Shown: positions 41,701 through 64,000 of the stretch, piece after piece
How positions within the stretch are numbered: position 1 is the stretch's first letter
Layout of the letters: each line of letters begins with the position of its first letter
Source of the DNA: Chrysomallon squamiferum
Taxonomy: Eukaryota > Animalia > Mollusca
NCBI GenBank assembly: GCA_012295275.1
Contig: CM022673.1
Span: 23,870,001 to 23,934,000 of the forward strand
Reading direction: 5' to 3'
DNA: 64,000 nucleotides
The notes under the pieces: generated by a model
Told to the model about the DNA's origin: nothing
Databases searched by the model: none
The model's input: only the letters and a program-made list of their open reading frames with translations
Program-made: the position numbers and the translations under genes

Positions 41701-44700
41701 TCCGTGGTGATTGTTGATAACATAAGAAAACAAACAAGAAAAAAGAAACAAAAGAAACCAAAAAAAACTACGTCGTACTTATTAAGCTTGTTTTCACTGC
41801 ATCTTAGTTTTATAACTAAGATAAACAGAAATGGCAAATTATCTTAAATATATAGCAGGATACTTACTTTCGTCTATCCGTTGTCTGAACCGTTCAAACA
41901 ACTGACCTCTTCCGTGGTAATTGTTGATTATCTCTTTGAAGGCTAAATGATTGGTAATATGTCCCTCAGTAAGACACTGTGTGGCATTGTCAAATGCAGG
42001 TCCGAGTCGTTCGTCTCGAAAAGCGACTAGAAGAGAGCTCAGTGGGCCTTGAATGGCACGCATGATGCTATCGTCGGAAGCATCGCTGTATGCAAAATCA
42101 CTGCAGTTCAAATCTTGACTCGATCCTAACGCAGGCCCTCCTGGAGGAAATATTACATCAACGTCAGGAACGCTGAGCACAAGCGGAATATGCAGTGCTC
42201 TGGCTGCACAGAGAACCACTGGAACGTAGTCGTTGTTCAGCTTCGGAACTAGGATTGTGTTCATCTCGGAAAAGCACTGCTTAAACAATTCTCGTTCTGG
42301 GCCTGAGATGCTTATATCACTTCCACCGTGCAGATCTGGAGAAATCAAAGTAGGTATTATTCAACTTCCGAGCAAATAAATTTACATTTCGCTGTGAACG
42401 TGGCAGTTTGTTCTGTGAAGCGATAGATATTGACGTCACTAAATTATTTTCCTTACATTTTCTGACACATCAGATAAACTCAGTGACTCACAACAAACGC
42501 GTAGTGATGTTTCTTGTTCATTTTCATTTTTATTTATTTTTATACAGTTTATTTTCTTTATTTGAAATTTGAATTAACTACAAATTCACCTGAAGAACAA
42601 AACACAAAAAAAAAAACACATTTTCATCGCGTTTCTGCGAATAACCGAATGTTCTAAGCATACCTGTTTCACAAATCGAACCGCCGTACGTATCGGTGCA
42701 GTGACATTCGCCAGTGTTGAAATCGCAAGACCCGAAATTTCGACAGCCATGATCTGAACAGTTTCCTGTTTCGTCGCCTGCCACTGAAAGACAATAAAAA
42801 TATGTTAAGTGATCGAAAGAACATCAGCGTCTGCAAATCCGAATAAGAATCTTCGGCAGAAGACGTGTCATTGATTTATCAAAGCTGTCTGTGTCATCTG
42901 CAGTGGCAAATTATCCTGACCTCCGCGAATAATATCAGGAAGCAACAGTTTGGAAAATTTACACTAGCAATCATGTTTAGCGCGACGTCACTGACAAACT
43001 CGAAGTGGTAATCAAGTATAACACGAAAACTTCAACATAACCAATTTTAAACAAAATGAATAATAACATAAGAAAACAAACAAGAAAAAAGAATAGAAAG
43101 AAACAAAAAAACAAAAACAAAAATCACGTCGTACTTATTAACCTTGTTTTCATTGCATCTTAGTTTTACGAATAAGCTAAAGAGAAATGGCAAAATATCT
43201 TAAATACACAGCAGGCTACTTACTTTCTTCTATCCGTTGTCTGAACCGTTCAAACAACTGACGTCTTCCGTGGTGATTGTTGATTATCTCTTTGAAGGCT
43301 AAATGATTGGTCATATGTCCCTCAGCAACACACCGTGTGGCATTTTCCAATGCCTGTCCGAGTCGTTCGTCTCGAACAGCGACTAGAAGAGAGCTCAGTG
43401 GGCCTTGAATGGCACGCATGATGCTATCGTCGGAAGCATCGCTGTATGCAAAATCACTGCAGTTCAAATCTTGACTCGATCCTAACGCAGGCCCTCCTGG
43501 AGGAAATATTACATCAACGTCAGGAACGCTGAGCACAAGCGGAATATGCAGTGCTCTGGCTGCACAGAGAACCACTGGAACGTAGTCGTTGTTCAGCTTC
43601 GGAATTAGGATTGCGTTCATCTCGGAAAAGCACTGCTTAAACAATTCTCGTTCTGGGGCTGAGATGCTTATATCACTTCCACCGTGCAGATCTGCAGAAA
43701 TCAAAGTAGGTATTATTCAACTTCCGAGCAAATAAATTTACATTTCGCTGTGAACGTGGCAGTTTGTTCTGTGAAGCGATAGATATTGACGTCACTAAAT
43801 TATTTTCCTTACACTTTCTGACACATCAGATAAACTCAGTGACTCACAACAAATGCGTTCTCATGTTTCTTGTTCATTTTCATTTTTATTTATTTTTATA
43901 CAGTTTATTTTCTTTATTTGAAATTTGAATTAACTACAAATTCACCTGAAGAACAAAACACAAAAAAAAACACATTTTCATCGCGTTTCTGCGAATAACC
44001 GAATGTTCTAACCATACCTGTTTCACAAATCGAACCGACGTACGTATCGGTGCAGTGACATTCGCCAGTGTTGAAATCGCAAGACCCGAAATTTCGACAG
44101 CCATGATCTGAACAGTTTCCTGTTTCGTCGCCTGCCACTGAAAGACAATAAAAATATGTTAAGTGATCGAAAGAACATCAGCGTCTGCAAATCCGAATAA
44201 GAATCTTCGGCAGAAGACGTGTCATTGATTTATCAAAGCTGTCTGTGTCATCTGCAGTGGCAAATTATCCTGACCTCCGCGAATAATATCAGGAAGCAAC
44301 AGAGTTTGGAAAATTTACACTAGCAATCATGTTTAGCGCGACGTCACTGACAAACTCGAAGTGGTAATCAAGTATAACACGAAAACTTCAACATAACCAA
44401 TTTTAAACAAAATGAATAATAACATAAGAAAAGAAACAAGAAAAAAGAAACTAAAGAAACCAAAAAAAACTACGTCGTACTTATTAAGCTTCTTTTCTCT
44501 GCATCTTAGTTTTATAACTAAGATAAACAGAAATGGCAAATTATCTTAAATATATAGCAGGATACTTACTTTCGTCTATCCGTTGTCTGAACCGTTCAAA
44601 CAACTGACCTCTTCCGTGGTAATTGTTGATTATCTCTTTGAAGGCTAAATGATTGGTAATATGTCCCTCAGTAAGACACTGTGTGGCATTGTCAAATGCA

Positions 44701-62700: not shown

Positions 62701-64000
62701 TCACACATCAGATAAACTCAGTGGCTCACAACAAACGCGTAGTGATGTTTCTTGTTCATTTTCATTTTTATTTATTTTTATACAGTTTATTTTCTTTATT
62801 TGAAATTTGAATTAATTGGAAATTGACCTGAAGAACAAAGGAGAAAAAGTATTCATTTTCGTCGCGTTTCTGCGAATAACCGAATGTTCCATCCATACCT
62901 GTTTCACAAATCGAGCCGACGTACGTATCGGTGCAGTGACATTCGCCAGTGTTGAAATCGCAAGACCCGAAATTTCGACAGCCATGATCTGAACAGTTTC
63001 CTGTTTCGTCGCCTGACACTGAAAGACAATAAAAATATGTTAAGTGATCGAAAGAACATCAGCGTCTGCAAATCCGAATAAGAATCTTCGGCAGAAGACG
63101 TGTCATTGATTTATCTGTGTCATCTGCAGTGGCAAATTGTCCTGTCCTCCGCGAATAATATCAGGAAGAAACAGAGTTTGGAAAATTTACACTAGCAATC
63201 ATGTTTGTGCATACCTGTTTCGTCATTGACAAACTCGAATTGGAAATCAAGTATAACACGAAAACTTCAACATAACCAATTTTAAACAAAATGTATAATA
63301 ACATAAGAAAACAAACAAGAAAAAGGTCATTGAAGGAACTTCAGCGTCTGCAAAGTCAAATACGAATCTTCAGCAAAAGACGGGCGATTGATTTTCGAAG
63401 GTATCTGCCTAATCCAGACTGCCTATTTACCTTGTCGATGTATTGAATGTTGGCAGCTGTTGGTGGGAATGGAGTACATTAATGTGAATAAACTGTAGAT
63501 TTTTATTTTTAACTGTTATTATCGGTATTTCACTTTTTTATTATAATTATTATTAATTTTTTTTTACCCTGCAAAACACTGATCAAGTAATGGTTCCTCA
63601 AAATTCTATCAAAAAAGAAATAAACCATCACAAATAAATATCGTATTCTATTATTAACATTATTGCTTTAATTATTAATTTTTGTTCAACTTTCTTACCT
63701 TTCGTCCAGTTTTACAGCTCATATTGTATTCCTATCGATTTAAAAAATCATTCAACACTTTGTTGAATAAGGTTCCAGAATCAGTTTCATAAAATACATC
63801 ACAAATCTATAGGTTAATAATGACATCTAACAATATTCTTACCTGTGTAATTACTGTAGAAAGCCTTGAAACTTAAATACCATCTGTAATAAGCTTCTGA
63901 CAGAGCAAGACCTGCGTTTTGATTGGCTAGTAAAGAACAAGCAGAAGATACAAAATACGTGTTGGCCAGGTTTTCATCTTCAAATCTCTCGTTCACATCG
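17136..64000 (-). CDS. Giant type I membrane protein, polycystin-1/REJ-related (EGF arrays, Cys-rich repeats, IPT-like, REJ-like, GAIN/GPS, single TM); 5' end lies beyond the window
   Basis: About 86 exons joined by hand with compatible GT-AG phases from 63843-64000 down to the stop at 17136-17138; >5,600 aa in the window if six frameshifting indels are errors or those exons are skipped. Confidence 0.8.
18400..20355 (-). CDS. GAIN-region exons (20223-20355, 19510-20056, 19157-19293) and GPS exon (18400-18612)
   Basis: VKDLAEPIVIEMP...VCHYFDITTQTWSTSGV...VVCRTTHLTSFSVF matches the GPS consensus C-x-F/W-D...W...C-x-x-x-H-L-T-x-F; helical upstream segment containing RRRRS. Confidence 0.85.
19330..19456. 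repeat. (CT)n followed by (AAT)n, intronic
   Basis: Seen directly. Confidence 0.95.
20532..26548 (-). CDS. PKD/REJ-like region exons: 26387-26548, 26024-26266, 25320-25506, 24906-25051, 24335-24451, 23863-23990, 23505-23681, 22961-23081, 22427-22528, 21946-22103, 20532-20705
   Basis: REJ-type motifs PVVTILGPRVISSCSDISL..GGVGKPMTYTWTV, PLYVYIKGGKERNVG..VTFDGSLSYDPD..LTYDWSC, LQTDSQYEFTLRISRG, GILEPEMTYMF; phases consistent. Confidence 0.85.
20710..21835. repeat. ~42-45-bp minisatellite (tacattgtcttctttagtcagtaattatacaatacttgtaatta), roughly 25 or more copies, filling an intron
   Basis: Seen directly; starts a few bases from the 20705 splice acceptor. Confidence 0.95.
22645..22905. repeat. 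~38-40-bp degenerate minisatellite (tatatagaaagtgttta...gtagaaaatg), intronic
   Basis: Seen directly, ~6-7 copies. Confidence 0.8.
26750..28941 (-). CDS. IPT/TIG-like exons: 28839-28941, 28420-28558, 27957-28031, 27339-27458, 26750-26956
   Basis: ISQVKPDIIPSATAKTVVVMGAGLSAGSRCTID and ISGGSEIVSIYG..TECIV..AYCEV..IKVALTLNGG resemble IPT/TIG strands; phases consistent. Confidence 0.65.
29164..30966 (-). CDS. Cys/Gly-rich repeat exons: 30838-30966, 30351-30533, 29591-29749, 29164-29296
   Basis: DCNGDCGG, ICGVCYGG, DACGEC, DCHGDCDG, DCEGVCNG, DACGFC, DCNGIC, NECGQC, DDCGVCGGDNSACLDCTG. Confidence 0.85.
31239..32959 (-). CDS. Four unique EGF-like exons (32840-32959, 32280-32400, 31955-32080, 31239-31361), all phase 1-1
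   Basis: PCDSSPCQNGGLC..FVCQCTLGWESADC and similar; the 32280-32400 exon is 121 nt (+1). Confidence 0.9.
33273..40503 (-). repeat. Tandem array of 23 near-identical 120-nt EGF exons (ATVNETDLCPAGKCGEFGTCIQDTGVCECTNNYTGIFCQN) at ~240-460-bp spacing
   Basis: Counted by eye; AAG acceptors, GTGAG/GTATG/GTAAG donors, phase 1-1; copies at 33571-33691 (+1) and 36782-36908 (+7) are frameshifted. Confidence 0.92.
41625..41720 (-). pseudogene. Truncated remnant of a 17th large-repeat exon (3' end and donor only)
   Basis: Encodes INNHHGRRQLFERFRQRIEE followed by GTAAGT; joined directly to intron sequence, with most of the unit deleted and no matching acceptor. Confidence 0.85.
41868..63018 (-). repeat. 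Tandem array of 16 x ~1.35-kb coding units, each a 120-nt EGF exon plus a 468-nt exon for an unrecognised 156-aa domain
   Basis: Large exons: 41868-42335, 43224-43691, 44570-45037, 45923-46390, 47270-47737, 48623-49090, 49970-50440, 51318-51785, 52664-53133, 54010-54477, 55364-55831, 56718-57187, 58073-58540, 59423-59892, 60777-61244, 62106-62573. EGF exons run from 42664-42783 to 62899-63018. All CAG|..|GT, phase 1-1. Confidence 0.95.
63843..64000 (-). CDS. Upstream unique exon of the giant gene (partial, runs off the window)
   Basis: Open frame DVNERFEDENLANTYFVSSACSLLANQNAGLALSEAYYRWYLSFKAFYSNYT-G|GTAAG; phase 1 is compatible with the EGF exon at 63018. Confidence 0.65.

Follow-up and report, generated by a model that had tools for sequence, protein, structure and literature searches.

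The repeated exons of this Chrysomallon squamiferum locus raise the question of what the 156-residue, four-cysteine domain alternating here with EGF modules is, and what a protein displaying so many copies of it would do. The window, that is, the whole stretch of 64,000 nucleotides analysed, is AT-rich (33% GC) and intron-rich. The original prediction placed 16 copies of the domain between EGF exons, in a region with the following features:

41868-63018, minus strand: array of 16 units, each an EGF exon followed by a helical-domain exon, with a period of 1328-1355 nt
62899-63018, minus strand: EGF exon that opens the array, phase 1-1 and 120 nt long (EGF_laminin in Pfam at 22 bits, cut-off 21)
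62106-62573, minus strand: first domain exon, 468 nt, phase 1-1, four cysteines
59423-59892, minus strand: unit 3 domain exon, frameshifted by 2 extra nt (exon length)
57187-56718, minus strand: unit 5 domain exon, frameshifted by 2 extra nt (exon length)
53133-52664, minus strand: unit 8 domain exon, frameshifted by 2 extra nt (exon length)
50440-49970, minus strand: unit 10 domain exon, 3 extra nt, in frame (exon length)
41868-42335, minus strand: last domain exon, used as input to the searches and the fold model; spliced contig in run X8
63843-64000, minus strand: 3' end of a divergent domain exon cut by the window edge (35 of 53 residues shared with the second domain of protein P0003, E 2e-23)

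All 16 domain exons were found on the minus strand, from 62573 to 41868, each bounded by an AG acceptor and a GTAAGT donor and each preceded by a 120-nt EGF exon, the first of which starts at 63018. Twelve exons measure 468 nt (156 codons, phase 1-1), one 471 nt and three 470 nt; 13 of the 16 are in frame, and the three with two additional nucleotides, starting at 59892, 57187 and 53133, are frameshifted as assembled. Across the array, mean identity is 97.7% for the domain exon, 98.7% for the EGF exon and about 96% for both introns. The insertion repeats an adjacent di- or trinucleotide in three of the four over-long domain exons and consists of two extra bases beside an A run in the fourth. 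Outside the array, three exons (at 33691, 32400 and 31000) are one base too long. These six frame breaks among 85 exons examined, in a gene that is otherwise open, suggest assembly errors.

Upstream, we infer that the divergent copy at the window edge is linked to the array, and the gene likely continues beyond the window with other versions of the domain. Between this exon and the first EGF exon, several short AG-GT bounded stretches (63420-63730, minus strand) represent possible micro-exons. At the opposite border, just past the last unit, a short stray copy of the domain-exon 3' end with its donor site was observed at 41712-41640; it has no obvious acceptor and is probably a scar left there by recombination.

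Expression was assessed by comparing positions 40000-45100 with four (X1, X6, X7 and X8) of the 15 listed sequencing runs, the spliced runs coming from two studies. X6 and X7 (RNA) and X8 (from the other study and labelled 'DNA?') each yielded a 618-nt contig containing an EGF exon, the whole 468-nt domain exon and a further EGF exon. In the contigs of these three runs, the 328- and 432-nt introns are skipped at GT-AG ends, exactly at the predicted junctions, and downstream EGF exons are joined to one another. The domain is indeed carried by one symmetric phase 1-1 exon, and spliced reads over it, the absence of which had been named as counter-evidence, are present in three of the four runs. 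X1 is unspliced DNA, in which the depth on the array unit was 359.6 versus 5.7-10 on flanking contigs, a ratio that is not a copy number; it hints at more than 16 units. The predicted alternation with EGF exons was found in every unit, whereas the true number of units may differ from 16.

The domain was followed beyond the window by sequence searches. A word-indexed search returned one relative, while an exhaustive search of 1.84 billion protein representatives at E<=0.001 recovered eight clusters of relatives, 27-47% identical, and a profile search added two more; none of these relatives carries a name or a Pfam domain. They are short gene calls resembling single exons read into the intron, and in four of the eight the sequence closes with G-K or G-E immediately past the domain, probably reflecting read-through of a phase-1 donor; one protein, P0003, holds two domains in a single frame. 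The four cysteines and both N-glycosylation sequons are retained in all 13 in-frame window copies. In the family alignment, C43, C78, C121, A45, F63 and F147 are invariant in all ten alignment rows, and C21 is present in all eight rows reaching that position. The cysteines are as constant as had been claimed, while the two sequons hold for the window copies and are not family-wide.

An alignment-based AlphaFold model (pLDDT 87.4, pTM 0.79; 85-87 across five models) contains seven helical segments and no strands according to DSSP. The domain is predicted to be all-helical, a bundle held together by disulfides, in agreement with the mainly helical fold proposed beforehand. ZP-N folds are beta-sandwiches. 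Identity with the ZP-N repeat of the abalone egg protein VERL was ruled out, the model being helical without strands. Among known systems, spectrin-repeat-like three-helix bundles may be close to the predicted helical domain.

Downstream of the array, on the same strand, lie exons of a predicted membrane-anchored protein:

33571-40503, minus strand: 21 tandem near-identical EGF exons, the last 121 nt long and frameshifted (Pfam EGF_2, E 2.3e-5; EGF-EGF splice joints in X6, X7 and X8)
31239-33392, minus strand: five more EGF exons, of which 32400-32280 is 121 nt and frameshifted (exon scan, Pfam)
28839-31000, minus strand: five exons rich in cysteine, with repeats of the CxxCGG type; the first of them (31000-30838) is 163 nt and frameshifted
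21946-23990, minus strand: exons with REJ matches (PF02010 at 32.9 and 27.6 bits, cut-off 25; weak third match)
18400-18612, minus strand: exon encoding the GPS, its His-Leu-Thr cleavage motif intact (PF01825 at 32.9 bits, cut-off 22.5, E 9.6e-8)
17576-17723, minus strand: single transmembrane (TM) helix followed by basic residues (the 1379-aa frame has no other Kyte-Doolittle peak above 1.6)
17135-17193, minus strand: predicted last coding exon with stop codon; cytoplasmic tail of about 33 aa

From 30533 to 17193, 26 GT-AG exons, whose boundaries we chose from the DNA rather than from RNA, give an open frame of 1379 aa without a stop. Within it, PF02010 scores above the cut-off in two of 25 exon frames scanned and weakly in a third, and the TM helix is encoded by the exon directly after the GPS exon. 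The array and the REJ-GPS-TM part share strand and matching phase 1. Among the joints listed for the four runs at 40000-45100, none leads from the final domain exon into the EGF exon that follows, so we infer a single transcript from strand, phase and position. The predicted protein would exceed 5,600 aa when the 1379-aa frame and the EGFs are added to the 16 units, each of 196 aa. The CxxCGG-type exons that separate the EGF stalk from the REJ region match nothing in Pfam and form a second unassigned module of the protein.

The predicted protein shows the features of the PKD1/REJ family, namely REJ, a GPS with the TM helix in the next exon, and one TM. Seven TM helices after the GPS were not found in the predicted frame, where one TM is followed by a stop, and an adhesion GPCR was rejected on this ground. 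PLAT/LH2 and channel domains after the first TM are absent, with the stop of the DNA-based exon model about 33 aa past the TM, which rules out an 11-TM polycystin of the channel type. The sequence of the host protein thus agrees with a REJ/GPS protein that has one TM (polycystin-1-like). The downstream REJ-GPS-TM frame also backs the extracellular position assigned to the domain, and the 156-aa domain is a real, expressed and unnamed helical family within a known kind of receptor scaffold. This scaffold, the upstream divergent copy and the family of relatives go beyond the original prediction.

Additional features were observed along this part of the window. The 21-copy EGF run (33571-40503, minus strand) is homogenised and, unlike the helical domain, has many synonymous differences, with variable microsatellites in its introns. 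A 47-bp minisatellite of about 24 copies occupies an intron of the REJ region (20735-21855), and the long exon preceding the GPS (19510-20056, minus strand) encodes four arginines in a row followed by Ser, which we take to be a possible furin-type cleavage site. Farther along, at 4160-12227 on the minus strand, a multi-exon zinc-binding-dehydrogenase-like gene was identified (weak ADH_zinc_N match, E 0.001), presumably resembling prostaglandin reductase 3; the final coding exon of this gene, together with its flanks, occurs twice, at 4160-4576 and 6069-6485, some 1.9 kb apart.

Comparison of the domain copies revealed near-identical sets. Clusters 2, 3 and 5 contain 16, 8 and 14 members, respectively, and identity within sets is 94% in the window, 97% in cluster 2, 97-98% among cluster 3 domains and 91% in cluster 5, versus 14-43% between sets. 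In a quick tree of 66 domains, every set formed one side of a branch (SH-aLRT 98-100), and the window set appeared as sister to cluster 2 with a support of 92, a grouping flagged as a meeting of long branches. A longest contig of 372,843 bases is common to nine of the 15 listed cluster 2 members, five of the eight of cluster 3, P0006 and P0007, suggesting that a single related gene carries several different versions. Near-identity within sets is the pattern that concerted evolution would leave, the relatives being seen as proteins rather than DNA; it is this shared contig, rather than the relatives' DNA, that suggests their near-copies are tandem arrays.

Within the window, the copies form two blocks, units 1-7 and 9-16, separated by 14-21 substitutions, with units 8 and 15 mixed. 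In the 12 copies of 468 nt, 22 codons out of 155 are variable; none of these is a cysteine or falls within residues 34-88, and variation is densest at residues 113-127. The changes comprise 21.5 non-synonymous versus 2.5 synonymous, which is not significant against neutrality (p = 0.064); pN (0.034-0.046) stays below intron divergence (0.049-0.065), with pS at 0.005-0.024. The variation would be compatible with selection on the C-terminal helices that is either relaxed or diversifying.

Several described systems resemble parts of this protein. SpREJ1 of sea urchin is a one-TM REJ receptor that binds egg jelly, and in the account of PMC1934368 the PKD1/REJ family ranges from 1 to 11 TM segments, with one in SpREJ1, SpREJ8 and SpREJ9. 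These three resemble the host protein in having REJ, a GPS before a single TM and a large glycosylated ectodomain (PMC1934368). Unlike them, the exons scanned here lack a C-type lectin domain, and the distal part consists of the 16-unit EGF/helical-domain array plus 26 EGFs, within more than 5,600 aa versus the 1,450 given for SpREJ1. Ciona s-Themis-A/B likewise combine REJ and GPS with a variable distal region; as described in PMC7018956, s-Themis proteins carry a hypervariable region with REJ, GPS and LH2 and act in self-sterility through self/non-self recognition. They have LH2/PLAT, plus a channel domain in type B, and vary between alleles, whereas here PLAT is absent and variation lies between repeat sets. 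In its evolution, the array resembles abalone VERL, reported to have 22 repeats of ~153 aa of which repeats 3-22 are homogenised, that is, many tandem units of ~150 aa more than 95% alike (PMC2704960, PMC8830517). Unlike in VERL, the repeat here is predicted to be all-helical, has its own exon alternating with EGF and is anchored by REJ-GPS-TM.

We propose, giving the idea about an even chance, that the helical domain is a repeated recognition or adhesion unit on a single-pass REJ/GPS surface protein. The product, predicted to exceed 5,600 residues, would be a membrane glycoprotein of type I, likely self-cleaved at the GPS, in which REJ and the EGF stalk would hold the array, at the far end, away from the membrane. 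There, contacts that are weak one by one could add up, over many identical helical units, to strong binding of a partner on another cell, be it a gamete, a conspecific cell or a microbe. Unequal crossing-over or gene conversion would expand and homogenise the array, spreading a changed unit, and each lineage would thereby display its own surface version many times. A more ambitious form of this proposal, possible and put forward only tentatively, is that an undescribed extracellular all-helical family with its own fold, shuffled as a phase 1-1 exon, multiplied independently in several lineages, giving each its own homogenised array on a giant REJ/GPS receptor, and decides species-specific recognition there, as the ZP-N array does in VERL but with a helical unit.

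Near-identity alone does not mark a binding unit, since positive selection in VERL is reported for repeats 1-2 and not for the homogenised repeats (PMC2704960). A structural role fits the data nearly as well as a ligand-binding unit, even though we consider it rather unlikely: the array would be a rigid or stretchable glycosylated rod setting the reach or mechanics of the ectodomain, recognition would fall to the N-terminal end, and tandem recombination would have made the copies alike as a side effect. The introns are homogenised almost like the exons (96% versus 97.7%), the plain downstream EGF run has expanded likewise, the copies do not vary in a way significantly different from neutral, and both sequons recur in every in-frame window copy. 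The more divergent copies lie upstream, in parallel with VERL, for whose two divergent first repeats specificity has been proposed in the work cited. However, the gene already possesses a spacer in its 26-EGF stalk, and very different versions (16-27% identical) are apparently kept together in one relative, exceeding the needs of a spacer.

It is improbable that the domain is a remote member of a described helical extracellular family, too diverged for profile and fold searches. In favour of this, family identity is low (14-43%) and the alignment shallow (19 rows, many redundant). Against it, none of ten domain members had a Pfam match below E 0.02 (best E 0.021), their matches showed no family common to more than the two window copies, and a profile search of PDB sequences gave no match below E 0.5. 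NCBIfam likewise gave no convincing match among the ten (best E 0.032); the earlier failure to match the domain to a known module holds for sequence searches of Pfam, NCBIfam and PDB. We regard as most unlikely a shed ectodomain whose array serves as scaffold in a matrix, in mucus or in cuticle and not as a receptor: the intact GPS motif, the tail of ~33 aa without PLAT or channel part and a coral REJ protein found in skeletal matrix, with shedding proposed (PMC4890752), would suit it, whereas the cleaved halves of SpREJ3 and human PKD1 are described as remaining associated at the surface (PMC1934368).

The modules of extracellular proteins that spread on symmetric exons form a small, well-catalogued and mostly beta-rich set, which a confidently modelled helical member without family assignment would enlarge. 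The domain is compact with four cysteines, and so should be easy to express and solve. If only a spacer, it would still be a new domain, of modest interest. Versions that are 43% identical occur in apparently orthologous genes, each homogenised within its own genome, and with them one could ask directly whether species-specific recognition arises from the concerted evolution of a repeat array, so far studied mainly in VERL.
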